Origin: an uncultured Gemmatimonadota bacterium
GTDB lineage: Bacteria > Gemmatimonadota > Gemmatimonadetes > Palauibacterales > Palauibacteraceae
Length of the DNA stretch: 64,000 nt
Direction: 5' to 3'
NCBI GenBank assembly: GCA_964613475.1
Contig: CAZTGV010000004.1
Span: 12,375 to 76,374 of the forward strand
A program made the translations under genes and the position numbers. This document shows positions 1 through 16,463 of the stretch, piece after piece. Position 1 is the stretch's first letter; every line of letters starts with the position of its first letter. Under the pieces are notes generated by a model that did no database searches, was not told where the DNA came from, and worked only from the letters and a program-made list of their open reading frames with translations.

Positions 1-287
1 GGCACGCGAGGCCGCTCCCGGCCGTCGTCCGCCTCCGCCTCTCCGATCAGGGACTCCACCTCGCGTCGCACGGAGCGCCGGTAGGCGAGGAAGAGACCGC
101 CCCCGACCACCGCGAGCACGAAGTAGGGCGTGGCCATCATCAGCAGCCCGCTCCACATGAAGCCCGCCTGCACGTTCGCCGCGGAGCCCTCGATGCACCC
201 CGGGCAGGCGAGCGCCCGTGACGCCGCGAGCGCCACCGCGGCGGTCGCCGACAGGCCCGCACCGGCGACGCTCACGGTCCCAACCAT
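1..287 (-). CDS. small membrane protein, partial (3' end cut by window edge)
   Basis: ATG at 287-285 on the minus strand opens a frame with no stop before the window edge. It reads MVGTVSVAGAGLSATAAVALAASRALACPGCIEGS...MWSGLLMMATPYFVLAVVGGGLFLAY. It has two hydrophobic segments and a CPGC motif, and it overlaps the ctaB stop. It is absent from the ORF track because there is no stop in the window. Confidence 0.35.
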   Translation of the reverse strand, partial: MVGTVSVAGAGLSATAAVALAASRALACPGCIEGSAANVQAGFMWSGLLMMATPYFVLAVVGGGLFLAYRRSVRREVESLIGEAEADDGRERPRV

Positions 288-1183
288 CCGTCGAGCACCA
301 GCGCGCCCAGGAGGAGCGGCAGGTAGAGGATCGAGTAACGGAAGAGCCGCGCGGCCGCCTCCCGCGAGGGCGAGCGGAGGAAGCCGAAGGCCCGCGCCAC
401 GAACGTGGCCCCGAGCGCGAGCGCCGTCCAGAAGTAGAGCGCCCCGGACAGGCCGAGCAGCGTCGGCGCCAGGCTGGCCGGCACCAGCGCCAGCGTGAAG
501 GTCAGCGCCCGATACCGGGTGCGCACGCCGGCCGGATCGTCCACGCTCAGCATCCGGAGGCCCGCCGCGCGATAGTCGCCCCGGTACAGCCACGCGAGCG
601 CCAGGAAGTGCGGCAGCTGCCACAGGAACAGGATGGCGAACAGCACCCCGGCGCCGAGGTCCAGCCGTCCGGTGGCCGCCGTCCAGCCGCCCGCGATCGG
701 GAGCGCGCCGGGGACCGCCCCCACCAGCGTGGAGAGCGGATGGACGCGCTTGAGCGGGGTGTAGGCCAGGTCGTAGATGAGGAACGCCGCGGCGGCCAGT
801 ACGGCGGTCAGGAGGTTCACCGCGAGGCCGAGGTACGCGATCCCGACGGCGGCGAGCGCGCCCGAGAACACGCCCGCGGGCCCCGCCCGCAGGCGTCCCG
901 CCGGAAGCGGCCGCTCGCGGGTGCGCGCCATCCGGGCGTCGACATCCCGCTCCAGGACCTGGTTCATGGCGCTCGTGCCGGCGGCCACCAGCGAGGTCCC
1001 GAGGAGGGCGTGGAACAGCCGGAGCCAGTCTACGGCCCCGCCGCTTCCGAGCCAGTAGCCGGCGGCGGTCGTCACCAGGACGAGCGCCGTGATCCGGGGC
1101 TTGGTGAGCGCCAGGTAGTCGGAGAGCGCCCCCCGGGCGCGGCCGGTCGGCCGTGCCGGGGCCTCGACGAGGGCGCGGGCCAT
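272..1183 (-). CDS. ctaB: protoheme IX farnesyltransferase (heme O synthase)
   Basis: 303-aa polytopic protein with the UbiA-family pattern LALTKPRITALVLVTTAAGY...ERDVDARMARTRERPLPAGR. It sits at the end of the cytochrome oxidase gene array. Confidence 0.9.
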   Translation of the reverse strand: MARALVEAPARPTGRARGALSDYLALTKPRITALVLVTTAAGYWLGSGGAVDWLRLFHALLGTSLVAAGTSAMNQVLERDVDARMARTRERPLPAGRLRAGPAGVFSGALAAVGIAYLGLAVNLLTAVLAAAAFLIYDLAYTPLKRVHPLSTLVGAVPGALPIAGGWTAATGRLDLGAGVLFAILFLWQLPHFLALAWLYRGDYRAAGLRMLSVDDPAGVRTRYRALTFTLALVPASLAPTLLGLSGALYFWTALALGATFVARAFGFLRSPSREAAARLFRYSILYLPLLLGALVLDGWLGP

Positions 1184-1238
1184 CCCTAGCCGACCACGCC
1201 CGTCAACGGGATTCCATCACCGCCCGCGCGCGTCCGCG

Positions 1239-1511
1239 TCAACGATACTCCATCAGCATCGCCACGATGAGGATCACGACCAGCGGAAGCGGCGCCAGCG
1301 CCACGATCCGCAGCCGGTTCGGCTCGAAGCGGAGATGCATGTAGTACAGCGCCACCAGCCCGGCGCTCACCAGCGAGATGAGCACCAGCAGGGTGATGGC
1401 GACCGACTTGGGGACGTTCATCATCGAGACGCCGACCTTGGCGAACATGAGGACCGCAAGCACGCCCCAGATCGCCATGTACGGCGGATGCGCCTTCTCG
1501 TCGCCTTGCAC
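1239..1511 (-). CDS. small cytochrome c oxidase subunit IV-like membrane protein
   Basis: Two TM helices (HPPYMAIWGVLAVLMFAKVGV... and LLVLISLVSAGLVALYYMHLRF). GTG start at 1511 is preceded by GGGGAGGAGG. It lies directly downstream of subunit III. The longer ORF-track start is R/G-rich and unlikely. Confidence 0.6.
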   Translation of the reverse strand: MQGDEKAHPPYMAIWGVLAVLMFAKVGVSMMNVPKSVAITLLVLISLVSAGLVALYYMHLRFEPNRLRIVALAPLPLVVILIVAMLMEYR

Positions 1512-1590
1512 CGCTCGCCTCCTCCCCGTTTCCGTGCGACCGCCCGGCCCGGCCCGCGCCGGCGCGCCGGGCGCGGAACCACGTCTCAAC

Positions 1591-2193
1591 CTAGATCAGG
1601 TAGACGATCGTGAACAGTACGATCCACACCAGATCGACGAAGTGCCAGTACAGGCCCAGCACCTCGATTCCCTGGAAGTTCTCGGCCGACCAGCGGCCCC
1701 GGAACGCCTCCACCAGGGCCCACGCGAGGCAGACCACCCCGCAGAACACGTGGAAGCCGTGGAAGCCGGTCATCGTGTAGAACGTGGCGCCGTAGAGGCC
1801 CGACTGCGGCGTGAAGCCGTGCGCCACCAGCTCCCGGTACTCGTAGGCCTGCACGCCGAGGAACGTCGCGCCGAGGAGGAGCGTCAGCCCCAGGTAGAGC
1901 CGGATTCCCCGGGTGTCGCCCTTCTCCGCCGCCGCGAACGCCTTCACCATGCTGACGCTGCTGCAGATCAGGATGAAGGTGTTCACCGCCGTGACCGGCA
2001 CGTTCAGCACCTCGCCCGGCGCCGCCCAGCTCTCCGAGGCCCCGAACCGGAGGACGACGTAGGTGCCGATCAGGGCGGAGAAGAACATCACCTCGGAGCC
2101 GAGGAACATCCACATCCCCACCTTCTTGGTGTAGACGTCGAGCCCCCGCTCGGGGGCCCGGTCGACCGTTCCGGCCGTCGCGTGGGCGGCCAT
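1591..2193 (-). CDS. ctaE: cytochrome c oxidase subunit III
   Basis: 200 aa with motifs FFSALIGTYVVLRF, TGFHGFHVFCGV and YWHFVDLVWIVLFTIVYL. It abuts subunit I. Confidence 0.9.
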   Translation of the reverse strand: MAAHATAGTVDRAPERGLDVYTKKVGMWMFLGSEVMFFSALIGTYVVLRFGASESWAAPGEVLNVPVTAVNTFILICSSVSMVKAFAAAEKGDTRGIRLYLGLTLLLGATFLGVQAYEYRELVAHGFTPQSGLYGATFYTMTGFHGFHVFCGVVCLAWALVEAFRGRWSAENFQGIEVLGLYWHFVDLVWIVLFTIVYLI

Positions 2194-4019
2194 CAGGTGA
2201 GCGCCGGCTCGGCTTCCGGCCCGGCGGTCTCGCCCGTGTCGGGCTTGTCGCCGGCCACCGGCTTCACCTTGGCGGGCGTGACCACCTCCGGGCGCTCGTT
2301 CTGCGCCAGCCAGTCACGGTCCGCCACCTCCGGGTGGCTGTATTCGTAGGGGCCGTGGTAGACCACCGGGATCTCCTTCCAGTTCCCGTGCTTGGGCGGG
2401 GAGGGCGTCTGCCACTCCAGCGTGGTCGCGTTCCAGGGATTCGCCTCCGCCTTCCGGCCCCAGAACAGGCCGTAGACGAAGTTCGCCAGGAAGAGGAGCC
2501 CGCTCGCGAACAGCCCGAAGGCGGCGAGCGTGATGAGGAGGTTCGTGTCCTGCATTCCTTCCAGGTGCTGGTACCCGGTCGTGTCGTACAACCGCCGCAT
2601 CATGCCGCCCGTGCCCAGCCCGTGCATCGGGAAGAAGACGAGGTTGAAGAAGAGGAAGGTGAGGCCGAAGTGGATCTTCCCGACCGTCTCGCTCATCATC
2701 CGTCCGAACATCTTCGGGAACCAGTAATAGATGCCCGCGAAGATGGCGAACAGGCTGCCGCCGAACAGCACGTAGTGGATGTGCGCGACGACGAAGTAGC
2801 TGTCGTGCAGGAAGATGTCCACCGGCGTGGCGGCCAGGAAGACGCCGCTCAATCCGCCGATCACGAACATCATCACGAAGCCCACCCCGAAGAGCATCGG
2901 GCTGTGGAAGTGCAGGTTCCCGCCCCACAGGGTCCCCATCCAGTTGAACACCTTGATGGCGGAGGGGACCGCGATGACCATCGTGGTGACCATGAAGCCA
3001 GTGCCGAGGGCCGGGTTCATGCCGCTCACGAACATGTGGTGGCCCCACACGACCCAGCCCAGGAAGGCGATCGCCACGATCGCCAGAACCATCGCGTTGT
3101 AGCCGAAGATCGGCTTGCGCGAGCCGTTGGCGATCACCTCCGAGATGATCCCGAACGCCGGCAGGATCAGGATGTAGACCTCCGGGTGGCCGAAGAACCA
3201 GAACAGGTGCTGCCACAGGAGCGGCTGACCACCCTCGGCCGCCAGGAAGAAGGTCGTCCCGATCGTCTGGTCGAAGAAGAGCATCACGACCGCGGCCGAG
3301 AGGACCGGCATGGCGAGCAGCGCCAGGATCGCCGTGATGAACAGGGCCCAGACGACGAGCGGGAGCCGGAACCAGGTCATGCCGGGCGCCCGCATGCTCA
3401 CCACGGTCGTGATGTAGTTGACCGACCCGAGGATCGAGGAGAGGCCGAGCAGCACGATGCTCAGGCACCAGAGCTGCTGGCCCAGGTGGACGCCCGTCAT
3501 CTCCGGCATGGCGCTCAGCGGCGCGTAGGCCGTCCAGCCGGCTCCCGCCGCGCCCCCGACCACGAAGAAGCTCCCGACCATCAGGACCCCGGCGGGCACC
3601 GCGGTCCAGAAGGAGGCCAGGTTCAGGCGCGGGAACGCCATGTCCCGGGCCCCGATCATCAGCGGGATCAGGTAGTTGGCGAACACGCCCACCAGCAGCG
3701 GCATGATGGCGAAAAAGACCATGAACGTGCCATGCATGGTGACCAGCGCGTTGTAGAACTCGGGCAGCAGCACCCCGCCCGAGACCATGGACTCCGGGAA
3801 CAGGTCGCCGCCGGGCAGCGACTCGGTCGGCCAGGCCAGCTGGTAGCGGATCAGCATGGCCAGGAAGCCGCCGATGAGCAGGAAGATGAGGCTCATCAGC
3901 AGGAACTGAATGCCGATGATCTTGTGGTCGGTGGAGAAGATGTACTTCTTCCAGAAGGGGAGCTCGTGCTCCTCCTCCAGGTAGGGTCGGCCGGTCGCTT
4001 CCGCCAGGATCGTCGCCAT
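2193..4019 (-). CDS. ctaD: cytochrome c oxidase subunit I (heme-copper oxidase)
   Basis: 608 aa with motifs WFFGHPEVYILILPAFG, HHMF and VVAHFHYV-like (VVAHIHYVLFGG). The protein is 12-TM-like. Confidence 0.95.
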   Translation of the reverse strand: MATILAEATGRPYLEEEHELPFWKKYIFSTDHKIIGIQFLLMSLIFLLIGGFLAMLIRYQLAWPTESLPGGDLFPESMVSGGVLLPEFYNALVTMHGTFMVFFAIMPLLVGVFANYLIPLMIGARDMAFPRLNLASFWTAVPAGVLMVGSFFVVGGAAGAGWTAYAPLSAMPEMTGVHLGQQLWCLSIVLLGLSSILGSVNYITTVVSMRAPGMTWFRLPLVVWALFITAILALLAMPVLSAAVVMLFFDQTIGTTFFLAAEGGQPLLWQHLFWFFGHPEVYILILPAFGIISEVIANGSRKPIFGYNAMVLAIVAIAFLGWVVWGHHMFVSGMNPALGTGFMVTTMVIAVPSAIKVFNWMGTLWGGNLHFHSPMLFGVGFVMMFVIGGLSGVFLAATPVDIFLHDSYFVVAHIHYVLFGGSLFAIFAGIYYWFPKMFGRMMSETVGKIHFGLTFLFFNLVFFPMHGLGTGGMMRRLYDTTGYQHLEGMQDTNLLITLAAFGLFASGLLFLANFVYGLFWGRKAEANPWNATTLEWQTPSPPKHGNWKEIPVVYHGPYEYSHPEVADRDWLAQNERPEVVTPAKVKPVAGDKPDTGETAGPEAEPALT

Positions 4020-4080
4020 CGCTAGCTGCCCTCCGTGGAGTTGCCGGCCCCCGCCGCGCCCGCGCCCGCGCCGGGCCGCC

Positions 4081-4749
4081 TCACCGCCCCTGCCCCGACT
4101 GCTCGCGCGTCCACGCCTCGTACGTCCCCGGCTCGTGGATGACTACCCGGCCGCGCATCCGGTAATGGCCGAGCCCGCACAGCTCCGCGCAGCCGATCTC
4201 CATCTCCCCCGGCTCCGTCGCCTCGAACCAGACGGGGATCGTCATCCCCGGGACCGCGTCCTGCTTCACCCGCAGCTGCGGGATGAAGAAGGAGTGGATC
4301 ACGTCCTCCGACTGGAGCCGCACCACGACCGGCTCGCCGGCCGGGATGTGGAACTGGTTGCGGATCGTGAAATCGTCCTCCGTGCCGGGCGTGCCGTCCA
4401 CCCCCGGGTAGGCCACGTTCCACTCGAACTGCTTGGCCGTCACGTCCAGCGTCAGGGCGTCCGCCGGGAAGGACGTCTCGCTCCGGATGTCGGCCCAGAT
4501 GCTGCCGCTGTAGACCCCCAGGAAGACGAGCACCAGCGCGGGCACCGCCGTCCACAGGATCTCCAGCCGCTTGCTCCCGTGGGTGTAGCGCGCCCGCCGG
4601 CCCTCGCGGCGGCGGTACTTGAAGGCGAACCACAGGATCCCGAGCTCGACCAGCACGAAGGCGATGCCCGTGATCACGAGGATGATCAGGAACAGCCGGT
4701 CGATCGGGATCCCGTGGATCGACAGGTTCGCTGGAAGCGACCAGTGCAC
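4081..4749 (-). CDS. ctaC: cytochrome c oxidase subunit II (CuA, no fused cytochrome c domain)
   Basis: Two N-terminal TM helices and the CuA site DVIHSFFIP...CAELCGLGHYRM. The 222-aa length leaves no room for a fused heme c domain. Confidence 0.95.
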   Translation of the reverse strand: MHWSLPANLSIHGIPIDRLFLIILVITGIAFVLVELGILWFAFKYRRREGRRARYTHGSKRLEILWTAVPALVLVFLGVYSGSIWADIRSETSFPADALTLDVTAKQFEWNVAYPGVDGTPGTEDDFTIRNQFHIPAGEPVVVRLQSEDVIHSFFIPQLRVKQDAVPGMTIPVWFEATEPGEMEIGCAELCGLGHYRMRGRVVIHEPGTYEAWTREQSGQGR

Positions 4750-4800: not shown

Positions 4801-5685
4801 TCAGCGCCCCGCCCCTCCCGTCTCCGACGGCCGCACGGCGGCCGGACCACTCTCGGCGTGCCACCGGACGATGAGCGGCTCGCCGAGCGGCACCTCGGCG
4901 CCCGCCATGTCGGCGCTGTACTCGAACGCCGCCTCGGCCGTCTCCCCGGCCACGACCGTCACGTTCGCGGTCTGCGTCCCGTACCCCTCGTGCCACGCCT
5001 CCAGGACGTAGTCTCCGGCCGGCAGGTTGGACAGCTCGAAGCTTCCGTCCTCGCCCGACACCGCGTGGTAGGGATGGTCGGTCACGCCGATGTACGCCTC
5101 CATCCAGCCGTGCACGTCACAGCGGACGGGGACCATGACCTCCTGGGCACTGAACTGCCGCGTCGTCTCCATCCCCTGGCGGGGCTGGCTGATGTTGAAG
5201 CCGCGGTTCCGCTCCGGCTGCGTGTTCACGTTGTGCAGCAGCGGGTCGCTGTTGATGATCCGGAGCGGCTGGCCCGCCTGGATGCCGAGCACGTGCGGAT
5301 CGTAGCGGCAGTTCTCCTGGTCGAGGTCCACCGGGGTCTGGGGCGCCGGGAACTCGCGGTCGAGCCCGTCCCGCACGTAAACGAACACGTTTGCCAGGCT
5401 GCCGTCGCGCACCACCACCCGCTCCCGCATCGGGCCGTCCTCGCCGTACGCGTCGGCGCACTCGGGCTCCTCGGACATGTCGAGCGGCTCGGGCGCCGGC
5501 GCCGTGCCCGTGAAGGTCACCGTCCCGCGCACGCTCCCCGCTTCGGCCGGGTCGACCACCTCCTCGGCGGCCGCCTCCGCGTCCTCGGGCGCCTCCGCGT
5601 CCTCGGGCGCCTGCTCCCCGCCGCATCCGGCGACGACGAGGAGCGCGAGGGCGGCGGCGGTCCGCTTCAGCATCCGATCCAACAT
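4801..5685 (-). CDS. lipoprotein with cupredoxin (type-1 Cu) domain and C-terminal CarboxypepD_reg-like domain
   Basis: ATG at 5685 is preceded by AAGGAGGGA. Signal peptide and lipobox LLVVAGCGG. Candidate Cu ligands are HNVN...CDVHGWM (a C-x2-H-x2-M loop as in amicyanin). The C-terminal segment GEDGSFELSNLPAGDYVLEAWHEGYG is typical of carboxypeptidase-regulatory-like folds. Confidence 0.7.
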   Translation of the reverse strand: MLDRMLKRTAAALALLVVAGCGGEQAPEDAEAPEDAEAAAEEVVDPAEAGSVRGTVTFTGTAPAPEPLDMSEEPECADAYGEDGPMRERVVVRDGSLANVFVYVRDGLDREFPAPQTPVDLDQENCRYDPHVLGIQAGQPLRIINSDPLLHNVNTQPERNRGFNISQPRQGMETTRQFSAQEVMVPVRCDVHGWMEAYIGVTDHPYHAVSGEDGSFELSNLPAGDYVLEAWHEGYGTQTANVTVVAGETAEAAFEYSADMAGAEVPLGEPLIVRWHAESGPAAVRPSETGGAGR

Positions 5686-5773
5686 GGCGTTCCCTCCTTG
5701 ATTGAATTCGACCGGCCGCGCCGGCAGGCGCCCGCGCTCGCACGGAGCGCCCGCCCTGCGGCTCGTTCCCTCT

Positions 5774-7312
5774 TCAGGCGGCGCCTCCACGCTGCGCCCG
5801 GCGAACCACGACCACGCCGATCCCGGCCGTGAGCAGGATCGCGATCAGGGGCGACACGTACAGCATGCGGGATCGAGGCTCCTCGAGCACAAGATAATAC
5901 CAGGATCCGATCGCGCCGCGACCGGCCGTCTCGCCGCTCGAGCCGTCCCAGGCGTAGAAGGCGACCGGCACCGCCCCTCCTTCGGGGAAGGCGAGCCCCT
6001 CCCCTTCCGTCGCCAGCGGCCGCCGGAAGACCAGGCGCCACTGGCCACGCTCGAAGGTGGCGCGCCCCTCCAGCGCGCCGTCCGGCAGCGGCTCCAGCTC
6101 GACGAGCCCGCGGGCCCGCCGCTCGCTCGACCCCTCCGCGCTGTCCCAGTGCCACAGGTAGACCGGCGCCCGTGCGCTGCCCATGAGGAAATAGGGCCGG
6201 TCCATCCCCGTCGGTGGCTCGAAGGGAAACTGCACGGCGAAGGCGTCCGGAACGGGATCGGTCGGGATCGGCATCTCGTCGTCGTGCAACGTCCGGGCGA
6301 GCTTCTCCTGCCACTCCGTCCAGCCCGGATCCGGGCTCCGGGAGGGATCGTTCCACGCGAGCCGGAGCGCCAGCGTCTCGCCGTCGTGGAGCCCCTGCAC
6401 CCAGACTCCCCGCACCATGGGCGCGAAGCTCCGCGGCGGCTCGATGATCTGTCCGGCCAAGGGGAAATAGTAGCGCTCCACCTCGTCCCAGGCGGGGTCG
6501 TCGGGTTCGCTCGGCGGCGGCTCGTCCCGCCGCGTCACCCTCACCACCTCCCGAAGCGGGGGCGCGCGGGGCGCGCTCAGCGAGGCCACGTAGTGGGCCA
6601 AATGCCAGAGCTCGTCCTGGGTCACGATCCCGGCCTCGACGGCGTCCATCTGGGTCGGCATCGGCGTCCCGTCCAACCCTGTCAGCATGCGCCGATGGAC
6701 CTGCTCGGCCCCGGGGCCGCCGTCGAACAGCCAGGCCATCGTGAGGTCGGCCGCCCGGACCGGGAGGCCGCGCCAGTCCTCCAGGGTGGGCGCGGAGGAT
6801 CCGTCGCCGCGCCCCGCCTCCCCGTGGCAGCGGTTGCACTCCAGCGTCTCGTACGCCGCGCGCCCGGATTCGAGCGCCTCGTCCCCGCCCCCGGGGTCGG
6901 GCGGGAAGGAGAGCGCCTCCGCGGTCTCCTGCTCGAAGAAGGGGGAGAGCGTCTTGAGGTAGGCCACCACATCCCGCTGCTCCGCCGAGGAGAGGTTCGG
7001 CCAGCCCGGCATGGTGGTCCCGGGAATCCCGTCGCGCAGCACGCGGAGCAGGTCCTCGTCCGTCGGGAGCTGTCCCGTGCCGGTGGTCCGCACCTGGTAG
7101 CGGGCCGCGACGAAGTCCCTCGGCCGCGGGAGCATGTGGGTGGCGGCCGGGCCGTCGCCCTCCCCCTCCGCACCGTGGCACTCCGCGCACCAGCGGTCGT
7201 ACACCCGCTCGCCGGCCTCGGCGTCTTGCCCCGCGGCGCCGCCCGCCAGGAAGCCCACGAGCCCCGCCGCCAGCCCGAGCACCGCAGCCGGGATTCGCGC
7301 CCGCCCGATCAT
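5774..7312 (-). CDS. membrane-anchored diheme cytochrome c fused to an EB_dh/DOMON-like heme-binding domain
   Basis: ATG at 7312 forms an ATGA overlap with the upstream stop. Signal-like N-terminus MIGRARIPAAVLGLAAGLVGFLAG. Two CxxCH sites (CAECHG, CNRCHG). The C-terminal half (AFAVQFPF...YLWHW...VAFYAWDGS) resembles the ethylbenzene-dehydrogenase-type heme domain. There is a terminal TM helix. Confidence 0.75.
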   Translation of the reverse strand: MIGRARIPAAVLGLAAGLVGFLAGGAAGQDAEAGERVYDRWCAECHGAEGEGDGPAATHMLPRPRDFVAARYQVRTTGTGQLPTDEDLLRVLRDGIPGTTMPGWPNLSSAEQRDVVAYLKTLSPFFEQETAEALSFPPDPGGGDEALESGRAAYETLECNRCHGEAGRGDGSSAPTLEDWRGLPVRAADLTMAWLFDGGPGAEQVHRRMLTGLDGTPMPTQMDAVEAGIVTQDELWHLAHYVASLSAPRAPPLREVVRVTRRDEPPPSEPDDPAWDEVERYYFPLAGQIIEPPRSFAPMVRGVWVQGLHDGETLALRLAWNDPSRSPDPGWTEWQEKLARTLHDDEMPIPTDPVPDAFAVQFPFEPPTGMDRPYFLMGSARAPVYLWHWDSAEGSSERRARGLVELEPLPDGALEGRATFERGQWRLVFRRPLATEGEGLAFPEGGAVPVAFYAWDGSSGETAGRGAIGSWYYLVLEEPRSRMLYVSPLIAILLTAGIGVVVVRRAQRGGAA

Positions 7313-8151
7313 TCCGCCTCCCCCACCATCTCCTCCCACGTCCTGGGCGTGGCGCCCGTCTGATCGTACAGGAAGACGATCAGGGACCAGATCTCGTCCT
7401 GCTCCAGGATCTCCTCCCAGGCGGGCATGGCGGAGTTCCACGGGGCGCCCTCGCGCGGCAGGCCCGGGCCGCCCTTGGCGATCCGCCAGAACACGTAGCT
7501 CTCGGTGAGCTGCGGGAGCGTGCCGGAGCTGGTGAAGTCCGCCGGGACCGGGTTGAACGCGGCGGCGAAGTGCCCGTCGCCCGCCAGGCGGTCGCCGTGG
7601 CACGGCACGCAGTTGCGCGCGTAGAGCGCCGCCCCGCGCCGCACGTGCTCCTCCAGGGAGCCGCGGTGCCGCAGGGGGTTCTCGAGCCCCGCCAGCCGGA
7701 TCGTCTCGCCGCGGAAGGAGATCTGGGTGGGTGGGGCCGGGTGCACGGAGCGCAGCCCCGCCGGGGCGGCGTAGCTCGGCGAGACCGCCCGGTAGGTGAA
7801 CCAGCCGGCGAGCAGGGGCACCGTCACCAGCAGCGCGAGCCGCAGCCCCCGCCGCTGGGGGTCCACCAGCGTGCGGCGCACCGGCTCCCGGAAGCGCCGC
7901 CAGCGTTCCTCGTCGGCGCTGACGAAGAGCAGCACGCCGACCAGCACGGTGGCCATGTACTGGAGGATCACGCTCCGCGGTACCGGCGCGCTCGGGACGC
8001 CCACCACGGGCAGGAGGTAGCCGATCCCGTACTCGAACACGAGATAGGCGACCGCCAGCACCAGGACGGCCTGCCAGAAGGGATGCGTGAGGAGCCGGCG
8101 CACACCCCGCGCCTCGCCGCTCCCACGCCGCTCCGGAGGGCCGGCGCTCAT
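7309..8151 (-). CDS. membrane-bound monoheme cytochrome c
   Basis: Two N-terminal TM helices followed by NCVPCHGD and a distal AMPAW region. It has ATGA overlaps with both neighbours. Confidence 0.75.
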   Translation of the reverse strand: MSAGPPERRGSGEARGVRRLLTHPFWQAVLVLAVAYLVFEYGIGYLLPVVGVPSAPVPRSVILQYMATVLVGVLLFVSADEERWRRFREPVRRTLVDPQRRGLRLALLVTVPLLAGWFTYRAVSPSYAAPAGLRSVHPAPPTQISFRGETIRLAGLENPLRHRGSLEEHVRRGAALYARNCVPCHGDRLAGDGHFAAAFNPVPADFTSSGTLPQLTESYVFWRIAKGGPGLPREGAPWNSAMPAWEEILEQDEIWSLIVFLYDQTGATPRTWEEMVGEAE

Positions 8152-8987
8152 CGCAGGCTCTCCATGAAGTCGAGCAGCGCCTCCAGCTCCGCGGCCGTCA
8201 TCCGCTGGCCGAAATCCGCCGGCATGGTACCGGCGAAGGCCTCGAATCCGGGCGCCGTGTCCGCCCCGGGCACGAGGATCGCCCTCCGGAGCTCGGCGCG
8301 GTCCCCGCGCATCGCCTCGAACGCCGGCCCGACCGGGCCGCCCTCACCCCCGAGCTGGTGGCAGGCGAGGCACCCGTACGCCTCGACCAGGGCGCGGCCG
8401 CGCTCCGCGTCCGCGCCGCCGGCCGCACCCGCCGGCCCGCCGCCGGCCACCTCGCCGTCCGCCTCGGCCGCGCCGGCCGGCGTCCCTTCCCCGATCGGTG
8501 CGCCTTCCCCGGCCGGCGCCCCGCCGGACGCCTCGGCGATTTCGGCCGCCGTGACCGTCACCTCCCCGCCCTGGCTCTCGAGGAAGGCGACGAGCGCCCA
8601 CACCTGGGGCTCTCCGAGCGTCCGGCCGAAGTTCGGCATGATCGGTTGGAAGCCCTCCACGACGTGCGCGTTCGGGTCCGCCAGGGACTGGTGCAGGTAG
8701 TCCCGGCAGGAGATCTCCGGCACCCGCGTCTCGCACACCTGTCCGGCGACCCCGATCAGTTCGGGAGCCCGTGTCCCCGTCCCGTGGCACGCCTCGCAGC
8801 CGCCCACCCCTCGGTAGATCCGCTCGCCCATCGCCACCAGCTCCTCGGTCGTCGTCTCCGGGCCGATCTCGACCGCGGCCGCCTCGGGAACCTCCGATTC
8901 CACCTGCGGGATGGCGTTGGCCACCAGCGTGTACAGACCGAGGGTGACCACGATGACCAGCGCGATGTTCAGGTTCGTCCGCCACAC
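8148..8987 (-). CDS. membrane-anchored diheme cytochrome c
   Basis: N-terminal TM anchor NIALVIVVTLGLYTLVANA. Two CxxCH sites (GGCEACHG, YGCLACHQ), each followed by a PIMPNF/MPADF-type Met region. Confidence 0.8.
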   Translation of the reverse strand: MWRTNLNIALVIVVTLGLYTLVANAIPQVESEVPEAAAVEIGPETTTEELVAMGERIYRGVGGCEACHGTGTRAPELIGVAGQVCETRVPEISCRDYLHQSLADPNAHVVEGFQPIMPNFGRTLGEPQVWALVAFLESQGGEVTVTAAEIAEASGGAPAGEGAPIGEGTPAGAAEADGEVAGGGPAGAAGGADAERGRALVEAYGCLACHQLGGEGGPVGPAFEAMRGDRAELRRAILVPGADTAPGFEAFAGTMPADFGQRMTAAELEALLDFMESLR

Positions 8988-8991
8988 GGCC

Positions 8992-10842
8992 TCAGCCCTC
9001 CCCGCCCCGCGGCCCGCCGCCCGCCACCACCGGCCGTGCGCCGCCGGGGACGGCCGGCGCCAGCCCCTTCGCCACCACCGGCTTCTCCGCCAGGCCGCCG
9101 AGCCAGAAGATCAGCCCGACCAGCCCGAAGAAGAGGAGCACGCAGAGGCTGATCATGGTGGCCGCCGGGCCGAGGGCCGGGGTCGCGGCCTGCGCGCTCG
9201 TGTCTCGGATCACCTCCCAGACGTGCCAGTGCTGCCGGATCCCGCTCCGCGCGAAGCCCATCAGCCCCATCAGCCAGGTGAAGGTGACCGCGAGGATGAA
9301 GAGGGCGTACTGGGAGCGCGCCGGCATCTCCCCCCAGCGGATCGGACCACGCGACCGGGCGCCGCGCAGCATCGCGATGTCGATCCCGAGGACGAACAGG
9401 ATGGTCGCGAGCACGGCCAGCACCTGATAGACGCTGAAGCCGATCCGGACGATCGCGGTCACGAAGTAACCGTAGATCCCGTAGAAGAGCACCACGGCCG
9501 CCGCCAGGACGAAGGCCGCGCCCTGGGCCGTCGTGCCGGCGCGCGCCCAGGACACCGTCGGCTCCTTGTTCGCCCGGCGGTACATCATGAACGAGAGGAA
9601 GGTGGTGAGGATCATCAGGTTCACGGCCGTGTTCTTCGCGCTCATCACGCCGAGGACCCCGAGGAAGGGATGGTGCGTCCCGCCCATGGCCGCGATCTCG
9701 TCGCGTCCCGCGATCATCGTGTGCGGCGTCGCCCACACGATGACCCCGAGGACGAGCACGGCCAGCATCCACTTCACGTAGGGCTCGAAGCGCTCGCCGC
9801 CCGGGATCCGCCCGAAGCCGACCCACAGGTAGTAGTTGCCGGCGAGGAAGAGGACGCCGATGAGGAAGGCCTGGATGATCCAGAGCCAGCTCATGAAGCC
9901 GCCCATCATGGTGATCCCCATCGACTGGTCGTACTCGTAGATCTCCCGCCCCAGCCAGTAGCCGGCGAAGGGGAGCACGATCAGGAAACCGATGGCGATG
10001 AAGTTCCCCGTATAGCCCATCCAGTCGTAGTGGGCCCGCTCCTCCCGCGTCCGCGCGGCCAGGAAGCGGTAGGCGGCGTAGGCGCCCACGATCGCGCCGC
10101 CGAACACGACGTTCGCCAGCAGCCGGTGGATGTTGATCGGCATCCAGGTCGCGTTGGCGATCGCGGTCCACAGGCCGATCTCGGCGGCCGCGGTCTCGGG
10201 GGTCATCCCCTCCGGCGGGCTCATCATGTAGGTGAGCCAGGAGTTCGCGATGAACATCACCAGGGTGCCCCACACGTTCAGCGCCACTCCGAGCCCGAGG
10301 TGGACGCCCTTCGCCATGCCCTCCTTCCACTGCTCCCACCCGTAGTAGTAGAGGTAGAGCGTGAAGGACTCCACGAAGAAAAGGCCCGCGTACGCCCACA
10401 TGGAGGGGGCGAAGATCTCGGTCAGGTGCCGCCAGAAGGTGGGGTACAGGGTGGAGAGGAAGAAGACGAGCACGGCGCCCCAGATGGCCGTCGCCGAGTA
10501 GGCCACCAGCAGGAGCCGCGTGAATTCCTTGGCCAGCTTGTCGTAGCGCTCCTGCTTCGTGAAGTGGCCGACCGCCTCGACCACGACCGCGAACATCGGC
10601 ACGCCGAGCACGAAGGCGGCGAAGAGCAGGTGGAGCTGCGCCGCGATCCACACGGCGCCCCGCGGGCCGACGAGCGGAAACTCGCCGTAGTCCATCGCCG
10701 CTTCCTGCGCGCCGGCCGGGACGGCCAGGAGCGCGGCGAGGGCCGCGGCCGCCCCGAGGGCGAGGGCCGCGCGCGCCGCGGCCCGTCGGCTCCCGCCCGC
10801 CTTCCGCCCGGGGATCGCGGCCCGCCCGGCGCGGGGGCTCAC
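8992..10842 (-). CDS. cytochrome bd subunit I (CydA)-like membrane protein, no adjacent cydB
   Basis: Helix 1 reads AAQLHLLFAAFVLGVPMF, comparable to E. coli CydA YHFLFVPLTLG. The protein is polytopic. The GTG at 10842 forms a GTGA overlap with the radical SAM stop and adds a signal-like RRAAARAALALGAAAALAALLAVPAGAQ. An alternative start is the ATG at 10695 (MDYGEF). The ORF-track extension up to 12060 overlaps the radical SAM gene and is rejected. Confidence 0.8.
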   Translation of the reverse strand: MSPRAGRAAIPGRKAGGSRRAAARAALALGAAAALAALLAVPAGAQEAAMDYGEFPLVGPRGAVWIAAQLHLLFAAFVLGVPMFAVVVEAVGHFTKQERYDKLAKEFTRLLLVAYSATAIWGAVLVFFLSTLYPTFWRHLTEIFAPSMWAYAGLFFVESFTLYLYYYGWEQWKEGMAKGVHLGLGVALNVWGTLVMFIANSWLTYMMSPPEGMTPETAAAEIGLWTAIANATWMPINIHRLLANVVFGGAIVGAYAAYRFLAARTREERAHYDWMGYTGNFIAIGFLIVLPFAGYWLGREIYEYDQSMGITMMGGFMSWLWIIQAFLIGVLFLAGNYYLWVGFGRIPGGERFEPYVKWMLAVLVLGVIVWATPHTMIAGRDEIAAMGGTHHPFLGVLGVMSAKNTAVNLMILTTFLSFMMYRRANKEPTVSWARAGTTAQGAAFVLAAAVVLFYGIYGYFVTAIVRIGFSVYQVLAVLATILFVLGIDIAMLRGARSRGPIRWGEMPARSQYALFILAVTFTWLMGLMGFARSGIRQHWHVWEVIRDTSAQAATPALGPAATMISLCVLLFFGLVGLIFWLGGLAEKPVVAKGLAPAVPGGARPVVAGGGPRGGEG

Positions 10843-12221
10843 GCCTCGTCCTCCCCCGCCCGGGCGAAGAAGGGAAGCCGCCGCGAGAAGTCCACGGGCA
10901 GCGCGCGGCGCACCTCGGCCATCACCTCCGGCGTGACCCGCTCGTAGCCCCGCTCGCGGGCGAACGCCTCCACCCGCCCCGCCACGACGCCGCGCACGAA
11001 CGAGGGAATCCCCTCCAGCCGCGCCTCCGCCTCGGGCGACCAGGAGAGCTCGCGCCGCGCCGGGTCCCCGTAGCGGAGCCTCCGGGCCGGACGCACGGGC
11101 GGCCGCATCCCCTCGGGCTCGTACGCGCAGGAGGGGTCCGGCCCGAGCGGGTCGCCGTCCACCGCGTACGCGCGGGCCCGGCAGCCGCCGCACACCTCCC
11201 GGTACTCGCAGCGCCCGCACTTCCCGCCCAGGGAGCCCTCCCGCAGGAGCCGGAAGAGGCGGCTGTCGCGCCAGATGTCGGAGAAGGACGCCTTCGCCAG
11301 GTCTCCGGCCACCGCGGGCAGGTAGGGACAGGGGGTGACCTTCCCCTCCGGGGTGATCCGGCAATACTGCACGCCGCACGGGCAGCGCGTCCGGTAGTGC
11401 AGCAGGGGCGACTCCGGGTCGCGCTCGAAGACGTGGCGCATGAGCTGGGGCTGGCACTTGGACCGGATCATGAGCCGACCGCGCCAGGCGCGCTGGAGCT
11501 CCACGAGCTCCCGGAGGACCTCGTCGTTCTCCTCCGGCGCCAGCCCCCGCATGCCGGCGCCGCGCCCGGTCTCGACCAGGAAGTAGACGTTCACGCACAC
11601 CGCGCCGGCCGAGGCCGCCCAGCCGACGATCGAGCCGAGCTCGTCCCGGTTGCCACGGGTGAGGCTCGTCTGGACGAGGAAGTCCAGCTTCCGCATCCGC
11701 AGGCGCTCCACGGCCGCCAACGTGTCCGCCAGGGCCCCATCGCCGTGCCGGAAGCGGTCGTGGTAGCGGGGGTCGAGCGAGTCGATGCTCAGCGCCACCC
11801 CGCGCACGCCTGCCTCCTTGAGCGAGGCGATCCGGGCGTCGGTGAGCCGGGTGCCGTTCGTCCCGACCACCACGGTGGCGCCGCCGCCGCTCGCCCGCGC
11901 GGCGATCGTCTCCAGGTCCTCGCGCAGGAGCGGCTCGCCGCCGCTCAGGATGAGGAGGACCGCCGGGTTGGCCGCCAGGACCTGGTCCACCACCTCCAAC
12001 GCGCGGGCGGTGTCCAGCTCCCCGGCGGCGGTGTGCCAGGCCCCGGCCGAGATGTAGCAATGGGCACAGGCCAGGTTGCAGCGTCGGGTGAGGTTCCAGG
12101 CGATGACGTGCGGGACCGCGGCCGCATCGGCGCCGGAACGCTCCGCCGTCCGGGACTCCCGCAGCCGGGCCGCGAGCCCCCGCGACGCCAGGGCCGCCCC
12201 CGCGTCCCTCGCGCCCCTCAC
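10839..12221 (-). CDS. radical SAM/SPASM enzyme (NirJ/AhbC/AhbD-like) with C-terminal PCP_red-like domain
   Basis: GTG at 12221 forms a GTGA overlap with the upstream stop. Radical SAM cluster motif CNLACAHC. SPASM cysteines CPCGVQYC...CPYL...GKCGRCEYREVCGGCRARAY. C-terminal segment WSPEAEARLEGIPSFVRGVVAGRVEAFARERGYERVTPEVM. Confidence 0.85.
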   Translation of the reverse strand: MRGARDAGAALASRGLAARLRESRTAERSGADAAAVPHVIAWNLTRRCNLACAHCYISAGAWHTAAGELDTARALEVVDQVLAANPAVLLILSGGEPLLREDLETIAARASGGGATVVVGTNGTRLTDARIASLKEAGVRGVALSIDSLDPRYHDRFRHGDGALADTLAAVERLRMRKLDFLVQTSLTRGNRDELGSIVGWAASAGAVCVNVYFLVETGRGAGMRGLAPEENDEVLRELVELQRAWRGRLMIRSKCQPQLMRHVFERDPESPLLHYRTRCPCGVQYCRITPEGKVTPCPYLPAVAGDLAKASFSDIWRDSRLFRLLREGSLGGKCGRCEYREVCGGCRARAYAVDGDPLGPDPSCAYEPEGMRPPVRPARRLRYGDPARRELSWSPEAEARLEGIPSFVRGVVAGRVEAFARERGYERVTPEVMAEVRRALPVDFSRRLPFFARAGEDEA

Positions 12222-14410
12222 GCCTCCTCGCCCCGCTTCCCCGCCTCGTCGGGGGAGCCGGAGCGCTCCTCCGCCATCATGCGACGCACCGCCGCTTCCG
12301 CCTCTTCGGCGGAGGCCAGCTTGAAGTCGACCGGACACTCCTTCGACTTCGCCTCGATGTCCCGGATCGGGCACCGCGTCACGCCGGACGCCTTCGCCTC
12401 CTCGATGAAGCGCTTCATCTCCGGGCTGAGCGCCTCCGCGCCCGCCGCCTCGGCGCGCGCCTGCTTCGCCTTCAGCTCGTTGAACATCACGAGCATCGTG
12501 TCCATGTCGAACTCGTCGGCGGCGATCATCGCCTCGCGGTTCTCGTCCATCACCCGGGTGGTGACCCGCCACAGCCCCTGACCGCGGGCGAAGCGCTCCA
12601 CCGTGTTGCGCGCCAGCGGGCGGGCGATCAGCGGAACCCGGCGCAGGCGCTCGAACGCCTCGTGCGTCCACACGATCGGATCCGCCTCGGTGCGGTCGCG
12701 GGTCGATTCGGTCCCGGTGACCGGGCAGCGGGCCCGGACGGGCGGCGGCGTCTCGAAGCGGTCTTCGTCGTGCGTCTCGACGACGGTGCGCTTCATCGCC
12801 TCCTCCGCCTTCACCTCGGCGAGGGCGATCTCCTCCGCGTCGCCGATGCCCATGACGAGCTGCATGTGGGTCGGGAGCAGCTTCTGGATCGCCTCGTCCA
12901 GCCGCTCGCCCGTCACCACCGGGAGGTCCTCCCGCCGCGGGGCGCGCTGGCCGTTCGCCCCCGCCCCCCCGTCCTTCCCGTTCGAGCGCGACGGACCGCC
13001 GGACCCGTTCGCCCACTCCGCGTCTCGGGCCCCCTCGCCCTCGGAGCGCCCGACCGGACGCGCCTTCCAGTCGTCCACGAAGGCCGCCGCGTAGCGGCTG
13101 CCGGGACCGTAATGCTCGAGCACGTACTCCTCCACCGCGCTCCGCGCGATCCCCTGCGCGAACGGGGGGACCCGGAGGATCCGCACCTCGGCGTCGGGCG
13201 CCCACTCGAGCCCCTGCTCCCCGTCCTCCTCGATCCACGGGATCTCATCCGGGCGGACGTCGGTGGTGCCGATGAGGAGCGTGTTGGCGGGCGCCAGGCG
13301 CGCCAGGTTCTCGGCCTGGCTCCCCAACTCGGTCCCCTCGATCCGGTGCGATCCGTGGCGAGCGAGGATGAGCAGGGAGGGCCGCACCTCCTCCATCCAC
13401 TGGAGGACGACCTGGAACGGCTTCCCGACCAGCACCTGCGTCTCCACCTCCACGTCGGGATACTCGCCCGCCATCACCTCGGCGCGCTTCAGGTTGGCCT
13501 GGCAGAGCCTGAGGAGTCCCTTGTCGATGATGTTGTTGTGAAGCTCCTCCTGCTCCTCGAACTTGAAGACCTTGGAGGCCTGGACGGAGAGCACGTCCTT
13601 GATGTTGTGGAAGACGACGTGGTGGTACTGCACGTCGAAGGCGCTGCACACGTAGAGCTCGACGCCGAACTCGCGCGCCATCTCGAGCGCCACCCGCATG
13701 CCCTTGTAGGCGTAGGCGGAGCCGTCCACGCACACCATGAACGGGCCCTCGGCGAGCGGGCGCCCGTCCCGCACGATGAGCGCGTCCTTGCGGATCCCGC
13801 GGAGCGCGCGCGAGACCACGCCGCCGAGCTGGCTCGCGGGCTGGCGGCCGAGCCCGTGCGCGCCGATCACGACCAGGTCGTAGTCACGTCCGGAGCTTCC
13901 GGCGAGCTTCTCCTCCCGGCTCTCCTCCTCGGCCACGAGCCGGCCGTCCTCGCCCACCTGCACGTCCCCCCGCACGGTGGAGCCCCCGTCGTAGTTGTGC
14001 GCGATGTTCGGATCGAAGCCGATCAGGCTGGGCAGCCGCCCTTCCCCGCCGTTCGCCTCCTTGACGATCTCCTCGAAGTTGATGCCCTCCAGGAGCTGGC
14101 GGGTGAGGGGGACGCCGGCCGCTTCGCACCGACGATGGACCTGGTCGAGGAAGCTGTCCGAGATGAGCTGGAGGCCCTTCTCGATCAGCTTGTCGTGGAT
14201 CCGGCGCTGCCGCCGGATCTCGTCCGGGGCCTGGAACTGGGCGGGAAGGCCGATCTCGAGCTGACGGAAGCGGACGTCGTGCAGCCGGGCGGCGTACACG
14301 TGGGTGCCGGTGATCCGGCCGCCGGAGCGCTCGCAGATCTCGATCGCGCGGTCGACCGCCCAATCGGAGTGCTCCGAGTTGTCGACCGGTACGAGAAGCT
14401 CTCCGTACAT
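12218..14410 (-). CDS. tandem universal stress protein (USP-USP) fused to two PCP_red-like domains
   Basis: ATG at 14410 is preceded by GGAG. USP motifs DLVVIGAHGLGRQPASQLGGVVSRAL and SLLILARHGSHRIEGTELGSQAENLA. PCP_red-like segments are LEWAPDAEVRILRVPPFAQGIARSAVEEY and IVWTHEAFERLRRVPLIARPLARNTVERFARGQG. Confidence 0.8.
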   Translation of the reverse strand: MYGELLVPVDNSEHSDWAVDRAIEICERSGGRITGTHVYAARLHDVRFRQLEIGLPAQFQAPDEIRRQRRIHDKLIEKGLQLISDSFLDQVHRRCEAAGVPLTRQLLEGINFEEIVKEANGGEGRLPSLIGFDPNIAHNYDGGSTVRGDVQVGEDGRLVAEEESREEKLAGSSGRDYDLVVIGAHGLGRQPASQLGGVVSRALRGIRKDALIVRDGRPLAEGPFMVCVDGSAYAYKGMRVALEMAREFGVELYVCSAFDVQYHHVVFHNIKDVLSVQASKVFKFEEQEELHNNIIDKGLLRLCQANLKRAEVMAGEYPDVEVETQVLVGKPFQVVLQWMEEVRPSLLILARHGSHRIEGTELGSQAENLARLAPANTLLIGTTDVRPDEIPWIEEDGEQGLEWAPDAEVRILRVPPFAQGIARSAVEEYVLEHYGPGSRYAAAFVDDWKARPVGRSEGEGARDAEWANGSGGPSRSNGKDGGAGANGQRAPRREDLPVVTGERLDEAIQKLLPTHMQLVMGIGDAEEIALAEVKAEEAMKRTVVETHDEDRFETPPPVRARCPVTGTESTRDRTEADPIVWTHEAFERLRRVPLIARPLARNTVERFARGQGLWRVTTRVMDENREAMIAADEFDMDTMLVMFNELKAKQARAEAAGAEALSPEMKRFIEEAKASGVTRCPIRDIEAKSKECPVDFKLASAEEAEAAVRRMMAEERSGSPDEAGKRGEEA

Positions 14411-14688
14411 CCGCGCTCCGGGCCTCGAGTGACGTGAGGGCGATCGAGCGTGCCGGCGGCGGCCGGCGGGCGAGGCGGCTCCGAACCGCACGAACCCGGA
14501 GGGCCCCTCGGAGGGGTCCGGACCGGTCGCGCAGTCTTTGGATCTATGACCGCTTACGAGCCCGCGGCTCGCCCGTGTCGTATCGATGCCGTCCCCCGCG
14601 CCCGGACGGGTGGCGGAGGACTCGTCCTCGGCTTCCATAAGCTGTTTCGGTGCCGGGCCTTCGGAGCGGCCCGGCGAGCGCCGCAGAA

Positions 14689-16452: not shown

Positions 16453-16463
16453 CCCCCGGTCCG

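Follow-up and report, generated by a model that had tools for sequence, protein, structure and literature searches.

We analysed a 64,000-nucleotide stretch of DNA (the window; contig CAZTGV010000004.1, positions 12,375 to 76,374) from an uncultured Gemmatimonadota bacterium and found that a four-gene cluster within it encodes a CydA-like membrane heme protein together with three membrane-tethered c-type cytochromes. By residue fingerprint and gene context, we assign the CydA-like protein to OR-N2, a quinol-site-less group of the cytochrome bd superfamily, and the architecture of the cluster is that of the standard OR-N2 or 'bd-like oxidase' cluster already described (Lucker et al., 2013, PMC3578206; Mundinger et al., 2019, PMC6606698; Yu 2021 preprint). 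The four genes belong to a larger conserved operon that ends in an aa3 oxidase and extends beyond the coordinates of the original prediction made from this sequence. Our first choice for its function, held tentatively and with a little less than even confidence, is that the complex would act as a terminal reductase, most probably of O2, fed by cytochrome c and separating charge. The window has a G+C content of ~74%, and the region is a run of minus-strand genes, of which the four core genes are:

8992..10842, minus strand: CydA-like membrane heme protein, OR-N2 type 'bd-like oxidase', 616 aa from a GTG start (Pfam, PDB, AlphaFold2 (AF2), Foldseek and residue fingerprint)
8148..8987, minus strand: diheme cytochrome c, 279 aa, one N-terminal transmembrane (TM) anchor, hemes at C64 and C206
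7309..8151, minus strand: monoheme cytochrome c, 280 aa, three N-terminal TM helices, heme at C181 in a c552-like domain
5774..7312, minus strand: diheme cytochrome c fused to an EB_dh (EbdC/NxrC-like) domain, 512 aa, hemes at C42 and C159

The original prediction had described a CydA-like gene followed by genes for a diheme, a monoheme and a diheme-EB_dh cytochrome, and all four were recovered in that order, on one strand, at these coordinates.

The CydA-like protein matches the Pfam family Cyt_bd_oxida_I (E 3.8e-22) with its N-terminal half, covering profile positions 8-242 of 418 only. Among solved structures its sequence matched CydA chains only, and only over the first 200-240 residues (5doq_A, 2.8e-8; 9r2g_A). 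When the AF2 model was compared with the PDB by Foldseek, the top 10 matches were all CydA chains with a probability of 1.0, and the global superposition was poor (TM-score 0.31-0.41 on the query; root-mean-square deviation 17-25 Å). The nearest database proteins, 76-92% identical and encoded by Gemmatimonadota (Longimicrobiales, Palauibacter), are labelled 'cytochrome ubiquinol oxidase subunit I'; remoter relatives are the 'bd-like' proteins of Nitrospira, with 51% identity over 549 aa to a protein of Nitrospira tepida.

The motif QLHLLFAAFVLG was found in the CydA-like protein, and its histidine, H71 when numbered from the GTG at 10842, aligns to H21 of Geobacillus CydA and thus to H19 of E. 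coli, which bears out the earlier claim that the helix-1 histidine context is kept. The GTG itself overlaps the stop codon of the upstream gene (GTGA) and is preceded by GGAGG at a distance of 9 nt. In relatives from several phyla, the N-terminus is charged, then hydrophobic, and passes through AxA|Q into 'YR..G.R..VWI.AQLHLLFAAF'. Because homologues share this charged-hydrophobic-AxA|Q N-terminus, we regard the signal-like extension, which the original prediction had made conditional on the GTG being the true start, as real and as a trait of the family; such an extension makes sense for a protein whose first helix begins on the periplasmic side, as that of CydA does.

To assign residues, we combined an alignment to Geobacillus CydA with a 29-member family alignment of diverse sequences. 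Helices were read from the AF2 model, which was built from a 50-sequence alignment without cofactors (pLDDT 78.8, pTM 0.80). Five positions of E. coli CydA have the following equivalents:

E. coli H19: H71 here, kept in 27/29
E. coli E99: Y151 here, Tyr in 26/29
E. coli E107: E158 here, kept in 21/29 and in at least 90% of the 50-sequence set
E. coli H126: H181 here, kept in 28/29
E. coli H186: H239 here, kept in 27/29

The region of E. coli M393 corresponds to M400/N404 and the position of E445 to S533, and the GRQPW-like motif takes the form RQHWHVW, which contains W539. H391 and H540, candidate residues for a heme-copper-like site (after Lucker 2010), are each conserved in 23/29 family members and K403 in 27/29; H71, H181, H239, Y151, Y165 and K403 are near-invariant across this diverse set.

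The model contains 14 long helices, a signal-like helix at residues 18-45 followed by 13 others. Helices 266-303 and 309-345 (TM6 and TM7) are linked by ~5 residues, and the Q-loop is absent. Where that loop would be, two additional TM helices lie ahead of the M400 loop, and another pair is found in front of the helix with S533 and W539. For the features that the original prediction had named as diagnostic, the outcome is thus a missing Q-loop, heme-ligand and proton-path residues that are largely retained but with E99 and E445 replaced, and a predicted topology of 13 TM helices plus the signal-like helix. The model would place H71, H239, H391, M400, K403, S533, W539 and H540 at the periplasmic ends of helices, and E158, Y165, Y167 and H181 toward the cytoplasmic half of helices 3 and 4, a geometry like that of a bd oxidase, in which hemes lie near the outside and protons are drawn from the inside. 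The protein is thus derived from CydA and retains the heme-ligand histidines and part of the proton-path residues, but has lost the quinol site and CydB.

These features correspond to a published group. In the classification of Murali, Gennis and Hemp (2021; bioRxiv 10.1101/2021.01.16.426971), the bd superfamily consists of qOR, OR-C and OR-N. These authors propose that cytochrome c may be the electron donor and describe OR-N2 as often lacking a second CydA-like protein and as encoded in operons with several cytochromes c and an EbdC homologue; OR-N has been recorded in Gemmatimonadota. Their Supplementary Table 6 lists for OR-N2 14 TM helices and the residues H99, Y183, E190, Y197, Y199, H213, H269, M430/N434, S563 and W569. 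The residue of the window protein is identical at each of them (window/OR-N2: H71/H99, Y151/Y183, E158/E190, Y165/Y197, Y167/Y199, H181/H213, H239/H269, M400/M430, N404/N434, S533/S563 and W539/W569), with an offset of 28-32, in a comparison that follows the numbering of TKS59798.1 and is not a direct alignment. The F114/F116 positions, which are Y,Y in OR-N2, are Y165 and Y167 here. The helix count (13 TM plus the signal-like helix, against 14 listed), the restriction of CydA homology to the N-terminal heme and proton-channel region with the H19 equivalent kept, and the operon content of multiple cytochromes c and an EbdC homologue all fit OR-N2 as well. The original prediction had pointed to published bd clades that lack the quinol site, and this fingerprint points to OR-N2 as the clade to which the protein belongs.

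The protein differs from the other bd-like groups. OR-C, OR-N1 and OR-N5 resemble the window protein in being quinol-site-less CydA homologues with alternative donors. OR-C proteins, however, carry CxxCH on the CydA polypeptide and have 8 TM helices, whereas the 616-aa window protein contains no CxxCH motif and has 13-14 helices. OR-N1 and OR-N5 both occur with petA/B/D genes, and the E107 position, occupied by E158 in the window protein, is Gly in OR-N1. We found no Rieske or cytochrome b genes in the cluster, and no window open reading frame (ORF) with at least three TM helices is a cytochrome b; Rieske genes elsewhere in the window were not searched for. Three relatives of the CydA-like protein at 50-56% identity (P0122, P0125 and P0131) have a length of 780-890 aa and a C-terminal extension with one or two CxxCH motifs. 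This fusion of a cytochrome c to an OR-N-type CydA blurs the heme-c-based split between OR-C and OR-N.

The public annotation of the homologues as subunit I of a cytochrome ubiquinol oxidase favours a different reading, that of a canonical quinol:O2 cytochrome bd oxidase whose CydB is encoded elsewhere. Canonical CydAB(X) (qOR1-3; 6rko, 5doq, 7nkz) does share with the window protein a homologous TM1-5, the H19, E107, H126 and H186 equivalents, an M393-like Met, a GRQPW-like motif (RQHWHVW) and hemes predicted on the periplasmic side. The window protein nevertheless lacks the Q-loop and the quinol residues, has Tyr for E99 and Ser for E445, is matched by Pfam over only the first 242 of 418 profile positions, has four more TM helices (13, not 9) as well as the signal-like helix, and is partnered by c-type cytochromes. 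CydB was not found in the 64-kb window, where all ORFs with at least three hydrophobic helices were assigned (CtaB, CoxIV, CoxIII, CtaD, the CydA-like protein, a 3-TM protein with no assigned function, MlaE, FecCD, and a 3-TM protein with a weak EII-Sor match); the earlier remark that the gene has no cydB-like partner thus holds for the whole window. Nor was cydB among the genes matched in 76 syntenic Gemmatimonadota loci. Across Gemmatimonadota genomes, K00425 (cydA) is recorded in 173 and K00426 (cydB) in 95 (PMC9426454). We consider a canonical quinol bd oxidase to be effectively refuted by these sequence features and give it next to no probability.

The three cytochrome partners of the CydA-like protein contain exactly five CxxCH motifs, in agreement with the five heme c sites first proposed: C64 and C206 in the diheme protein, C181 in the monoheme protein, and C42 and C159 in the EB_dh fusion. 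All three were predicted to have membrane anchors, which we find as one N-terminal TM helix, three N-terminal TM helices and one C-terminal TM helix, respectively; the fusion protein also has a signal-like N-terminus. The diheme gene begins 4 nt past the CydA-like gene, and the monoheme gene overlaps its neighbour by 4 nt at both its start and its stop, coordinates by which the four genes are translationally coupled.

The first domain of the diheme protein resembles Kuenenia Kustd1711 (7zs0_A, E 8.6e-14), a diheme cytochrome of the anammox nxr cluster, whose hemes have potentials of ~+350 mV, and also the cytochrome c domain of subunit II of the Rhodothermus caa3 oxidase (1w2l_A, E 4.8e-8). 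With a 1w2l_A-like first domain in this protein and a CoxB without cytochrome c in the same operon, the tethered diheme cytochrome may also serve the aa3 oxidase. Residues 31-249 of the fusion protein match 6h5l_B (E 5.6e-48), which we take to be kustc0457, the diheme redox partner in a hydroxylamine oxidoreductase-like (HAO-like) complex; a preprint cites 6h5l as the Kuenenia HAO-like structure.

The remainder of the fusion protein belongs to the EB_dh family (Pfam E 1.9e-15), as first proposed, and matches TIGR03477 ('DMSO reductase family type II enzyme, heme b subunit') at 3e-29 and 101.8 bits, under the cut-off of 169.85. It aligns in structure matches with EbdC (2ivf_C, 4.6e-8) and with 7b04_C, and is homologous to EbdC and NxrC. 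Its capacity to bind heme is less secure. With Met108 and Lys201 of EbdC taken as the axial ligands of heme b and the positions read from the alignment, the Met is kept as M377 and the Lys position is occupied by R465. Of 63 orthologues, 54 have R at the Lys-ligand position and 6 have Q, and K is found only in the 3 sequences from Methylomirabilota ('GSKM'); 'RM' stands at this position in 12 orthologues, and the Met ligand is replaced by Gly or another residue in 20/63. It is therefore doubtful that the Gemmatimonadota EB_dh domain binds heme b, unless it does so with other ligands, and the heme site seems to be changing or lost in this phylum. The family assignment of the EB_dh-type heme domain therefore stood, and its heme did not stand with the same security.

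The homology of this domain to EbdC and NxrC raises another interpretation, in which the cluster forms a membrane dock and electron sink for a periplasmic, NXR-like molybdoenzyme of the type II DMSO reductase family (NXR, nitrite oxidoreductase; DMSO, dimethyl sulfoxide), with the EB_dh domain as its gamma subunit. Such a role has been proposed in the literature for Nitrospira alt_NxrC_2 together with bd-like_3. In one Nitrospira genome a bd-like gene lies directly before nxrA and nxrB, and the Acidobacteriota clusters described below include a molybdopterin-oxidoreductase-like protein of the twin-arginine translocation (TAT) type. The Gemmatimonadota evidence runs the other way. No molybdopterin or Fe-S genes were matched beside the cluster in the 76 loci, in a search limited to homologues of the cluster genes of the window, and none is present among the annotated cluster genes or the multi-TM ORFs of the window, where annotation beyond ~20 kb covers multi-TM ORFs only. 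The Met and Lys pair by which EbdC and NxrC gamma subunits hold their heme is incomplete in the window domain (R465), although the fold and family are shared, and the loss of ligands across the orthologues (Lys to Arg in 54/63, no Met in 20/63) suggests that the role of the domain has relaxed or changed in Gemmatimonadota. We consider the docking role improbable.

In the cytochrome c-fed reductase that we tentatively favour, the core would be a single 13-TM CydA homologue, its N-terminus exported by the signal-like helix, in which the TM1-4 bundle of heme and proton-path residues is kept. Its partners would be the three membrane-tethered periplasmic proteins, with five hemes c between them and an EbdC/NxrC-like domain on one. 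Electrons would enter on the periplasmic side through the c hemes, move to a b558-like heme ligated by H239 and M400, and pass on to a heme ligated by H71, where the oxidant, most probably O2, would be reduced with protons drawn from the cytoplasm along E158, H181, Y165 and Y167. The complex would be expressed from the aa3 operon and might share its tethered cytochromes, and perhaps a small copper protein, with the aa3 oxidase. We rank this reading first because a cytoplasmic proton path would be useful if a substrate is reduced at the H71 heme, and would have no use in quinol oxidation on the outside or in reverse electron flow driven by the proton-motive force. It follows Murali et al. and the argument drawn from aerobic Nitrospira, which lack heme-copper oxidases and for which the bd-like protein is the proposed terminal oxidase. 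The original prediction had likewise named the locus as a candidate cytochrome c:O2 (or other acceptor) enzyme of the bd family. The absent Q-loop and the largely kept ligands agree with it; reduction of O2 is only one of two published hypotheses for the bd-like cluster, the other being a complex-III-like, quinone-interacting role.

Several observations weigh against a terminal reductase. E99 is replaced by Y151, and E445, which ligates heme b595 in canonical bd, by S533; because of these replacements, a canonical b595/d pair, and with it a three-heme bd-type active site, is unlikely in the CydA-like protein. The EB_dh domain lacks the canonical Lys heme ligand. The operon already encodes a genuine O2 reductase (aa3) and has no quinol-oxidising module. 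Anammox bacteria also conserve this cluster, although they are strict anaerobes for which an O2 reductase would be of little use. The helix topology rests on a cofactor-free AF2 model, read for secondary structure only. Finally, the searched literature contained no report of the purification or assay of any OR-N2 member, in line with the earlier statement that the quinol-site-less clades are biochemically uncharacterised.

The same losses (E99, E445 and the EB_dh Lys) could be taken to mean that the cluster is a non-catalytic or decaying remnant without a redox role. Such a remnant would hardly be expected to show 76-92% identity across hundreds of Gemmatimonadota sequences, a near-invariant synteny, conserved His and Met ligands, and intact reading frames with a G+C content at third codon positions of ~0.97, which is what the cluster ORFs show; its relatives in Nitrospira and Manganitrophus are also very highly expressed. 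Sequence features and strong conservation together effectively exclude a dead remnant, to which we assign only a very slight chance.

The operon context matters for the interpretation. Related loci were found with an 8-sequence alignment, and the best 80 were nearly all from Gemmatimonadota; synteny was scored in 76 Gemmatimonadota loci from species-representative genomes, with counts given as loci that have the gene over loci long enough to show it. Gene order is nearly invariant, with at most one locus lacking any given gene where the contig reaches. It runs Mrp/NBP35 - Zn-ribbon+PCP_red - (3-TM protein) - Usp+PCP_red - radical SAM/SPASM+PCP_red - CydA-like, and then CydA-like - diheme c - monoheme c - diheme c+EB_dh - lipoprotein - coxB - ctaD - coxIII - coxIV - ctaB. 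Among the core partners, diheme c is present in 65/65 loci, monoheme c in 61/61 and c-EB_dh in 55/55. The other genes of the operon in the window are:

272..4749, minus strand: aa3-type cytochrome c oxidase operon, directly downstream of the cluster (Pfam COX2, COX2_TM, COX4_pro), made up of the next five genes
272-1183, minus strand: ctaB
1239-1589, minus strand: coxIV (COX4_pro)
1591-2193, minus strand: coxIII (cox3; 49/49 loci)
2193-4019, minus strand: ctaD (52/52 loci)
4081-4749, minus strand: coxB, a plain CuA subunit of 222 aa with no fused cytochrome c domain (53/53 loci)
4801..5688, minus strand: lipoprotein with a possible cupredoxin-like N-domain and a CarboxypepD_reg domain, between the cytochromes and coxB (54/55 loci)
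10839..12100, minus strand: radical SAM/SPASM protein (AhbD/NirJ2 type) with PCP_red at its C-terminus; start approximate, stop overlapping the CydA-like start (GTGA) (70/71 loci)
12218..14413, minus strand: Usp-PCP_red protein, 731 aa, with two Usp and two PCP_red matches (57/57 loci)
15116-15568, minus strand: Zn-ribbon + PCP_red protein (52/52 loci)
15547-16500, minus strand: Mrp/NBP35-type P-loop ATPase (51/51 loci)

A scan for promoters and terminators gave nothing above chance and so does not mark the operon limits.

The junction with aa3 is one argument for the second published hypothesis, a substitute for complex III, in which the CydA-like protein would be a quinone-interacting subunit that oxidises menaquinol at a site other than the Q-loop. 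Electrons would pass from its b heme(s) to the tethered c hemes, perhaps through the copper lipoprotein, and on to the downstream aa3; the module would operate in the opposite direction in nitrite oxidisers and anammox bacteria. In Gemmatimonadota the cluster is joined to the aa3 operon in 52-53 of 52-53 loci, and the junction recurs in Rokubacteria. In other phyla, the genes for alternative complex III (ACIII) or for a bc complex take this position upstream of the caa3 operon (ACIII-caa3 operons), and ACIII is often found in a supercomplex with caa3/aa3 oxidase. A cytochrome c domain is missing from CoxB, and the N-domain of the diheme protein resembles the cytochrome c domain of caa3 subunit II (1w2l_A). 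The operon would hold a complete chain from quinol to O2 if the bd-like module served the neighbouring aa3 as its quinol:cytochrome c oxidoreductase. Among 326 Gemmatimonadota genomes petB is found in 23%, ACIII in <10% and coxA in 82%, so that most have cytochrome c oxidases without a recognisable bc1 or ACIII, and Zheng et al. (PMC9426454) suspect an unknown complex III.

The comparison with ACIII (ActABCDEF, 6btm) has two sides as well. Both modules sit directly upstream of an aa3-type oxidase and have a periplasmic multi-heme c wire, and Acidobacteriota relatives of the cluster carry ActA/QrcA-like and ActB-like genes before the CydA-like gene, with no NrfD/ActC-like gene called in those loci. 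In contrast to ACIII, neither the cluster nor the multi-TM ORFs of the window include an NrfD-type ActC/ActF, the membrane subunit being a CydA homologue whose Foldseek likeness to ActC is weak (probability 0.89, TM-score 0.23), and the ActA/ActB-like genes occur only in the Acidobacteriota relatives and in none of the Gemmatimonadota clusters.

Other evidence argues against a quinol-oxidising role. The canonical quinol residues and the Q-loop are all absent, and no alternative quinone site was recognised in the CydA-like protein. Residues of the cytoplasm-side proton path (E158, H181) are not needed for quinol oxidation at the periplasmic side. The OR-N1 and OR-N5 relatives bring their own Rieske/cytochrome b module, which suggests that the bd-like part is not itself the quinol oxidiser. 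Among 16 cydA-only genomes that could be scored from the lists of PMC9426454, petB is present in 3, about the phylum average, so that no anticorrelation is visible. We judge a complex III substitute to be possible but unlikely. A bolder form of the idea seems to us somewhat less likely again: that the OR-N2 module is the 'missing complex III' of Gemmatimonadota, and perhaps of Methylomirabilota and Acidobacteriota, a third and CydA-derived type of quinol:cytochrome c oxidoreductase that would form one operon-encoded chain, possibly a supercomplex, with aa3, and whose cofactors the radical SAM, PCP_red and Mrp proteins would mature.

The cytochrome c-fed terminal reductase and the complex III substitute make different predictions in this setting: the former predicts cytochrome c:O2 activity and the latter menaquinol:cytochrome c activity. 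Proteins of the bd-like (OR-N) type are abundant, and their genes rank with the most strongly expressed respiratory genes of nitrite and manganese oxidisers. With no OR-N member for which an assay is reported, a whole branch of the third oxygen-reductase superfamily is without a known reaction. The architecture itself has been described before; it is the NXR-free and near-invariantly aa3-linked context that lets the two hypotheses diverge and makes the Gemmatimonadota version, uncoupled from nitrite oxidoreductase and found in a phylum where a recognisable bc1 or ACIII is mostly missing beside the cytochrome c oxidases, a useful test case.

How far this version departs from the published clusters can be told from their descriptions, on which our comparison with TO_1 and bd-like_3 rests. 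Lucker et al. (2013; PMC3578206) described in Kuenenia, Nitrospira and Nitrospina a cluster with an alternative NxrC, a zinc-finger protein and cupredoxin-like proteins around a 14-helix bd-like oxidase, in which helices replace the Q-loop and quinol residues are missing. Mundinger et al. (2019; PMC6606698) found bd-like_3, alt_NxrC_2 and two cytochromes c of N. moscoviensis among its 40 most transcribed genes, and the Manganitrophus TO_1 cluster has the same composition and lies at the 98th expression percentile. The window cluster agrees with those of Nitrospira, Nitrospina and anammox bacteria in its 14 predicted helices, the lack of a Q-loop and of CydB, the diheme and monoheme c, the EbdC/NxrC-like subunit, the zinc-finger protein and, possibly, a cupredoxin-like protein. 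It differs in that no NXR genes were found among the annotated genes near the Gemmatimonadota cluster; in that it shares one operon with the aa3 oxidase, the AhbD/NirJ-like radical SAM gene, Usp-PCP_red and Mrp; and in that its EB_dh domain is fused to a diheme cytochrome c and has Arg for the Lys heme ligand. The searched literature contained no paper that links Gemmatimonadota with 'bd-like'.

Two of the shared features concern accessory proteins. The Zn-ribbon-PCP_red protein may be the 'zinc finger' protein of the Nitrospina/Nitrospira/Kuenenia cluster. In the lipoprotein, the motifs NSDxxLHN and CxVHGWM are nearly invariant, and their residues H152, C190, H193 and M196 form a pattern that looks like a type-1 copper site. 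A weak hhalign match to amicyanin aligns all four type-1 Cu ligands (probability 14%, E 0.002), and Pfam Copper-bind gave weak matches in 3/34 orthologues.

The radical SAM protein matches Pfam Radical_SAM, SPASM and PCP_red and, with 246.8 and 238.2 bits, the NCBIfam models NirJ2 and AhbD, whose cut-offs of 500 are not reached. AhbD is a heme b synthase, and PCP_red is the C-terminal domain of the protochlorophyllide reductase BchB. Such a combination suggests that the enzyme modifies tetrapyrroles and is co-expressed with the bd-like complex, perhaps to make heme or to mature a cofactor.

Parts of this gene set recur in other phyla. Three loci of Methylomirabilota/Rokubacteria share the four-gene core, two of them also with the lipoprotein and coxB, and in an NC10 locus the cluster is accompanied by Usp, radical SAM, Mrp and Zn-PCP_red genes. 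In two Acidobacteriota loci, a QrcA/ActA-like multiheme cytochrome and a fused QrcB/QrcC protein precede the CydA-like gene (L084, 5855-10004; L085, 5136-10004); the fused protein is ActB-like with a TAT-type, molybdopterin-oxidoreductase-like N-terminus, and another cytochrome c gene also lies upstream of the core. The core is followed there by Usp-PCP_red (L084, 14922-16889; L085, 15329-20085), in L085 also with Mrp and PCP_red. With no NrfD/ActC-like gene called within ±10 kb, these loci would be hybrids of ACIII/Qrc parts with a bd-like membrane subunit. One Fibrobacterota locus has the core with a CarboxypepD_reg protein and Mrp, and the fusion of diheme c to EB_dh is found in both Acidobacteriota and Fibrobacterota. 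The c-EB_dh fusion, the lipoprotein and the PCP_red and Mrp genes are therefore recurrent companions of OR-N2 and not peculiarities of the window. The Gemmatimonadota case adds the observation that a gene set of PCP_red, Mrp and the AhbD/NirJ-like radical SAM protein travels with OR-N2 across phyla.

Nitrospirota present further arrangements. The TO_1-type cluster was not met at four paralogues, of which three are singletons (L081, L082 and L087) and one lies beside nxrAB. In the latter (Nitrospira L083, CP058931.1, 10001-17735), the bd-like paralogue is directly upstream of two genes, presumably nxrA and nxrB, which encode a molybdopterin protein of 1145 aa and an Fe-S protein of 429 aa. In a metagenome-assembled genome (L089, 8851-18234), two CydA-like genes (656 and 606 aa) flank Rieske and cytochrome b genes in an operon that further includes a CarboxypepD_reg protein and four cytochromes c; Murali et al. 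mention this arrangement of OR-N1/OR-N2 with pet genes. CarboxypepD_reg proteins thus occur in both the Nitrospirota and the Fibrobacterota clusters (L089, L090).

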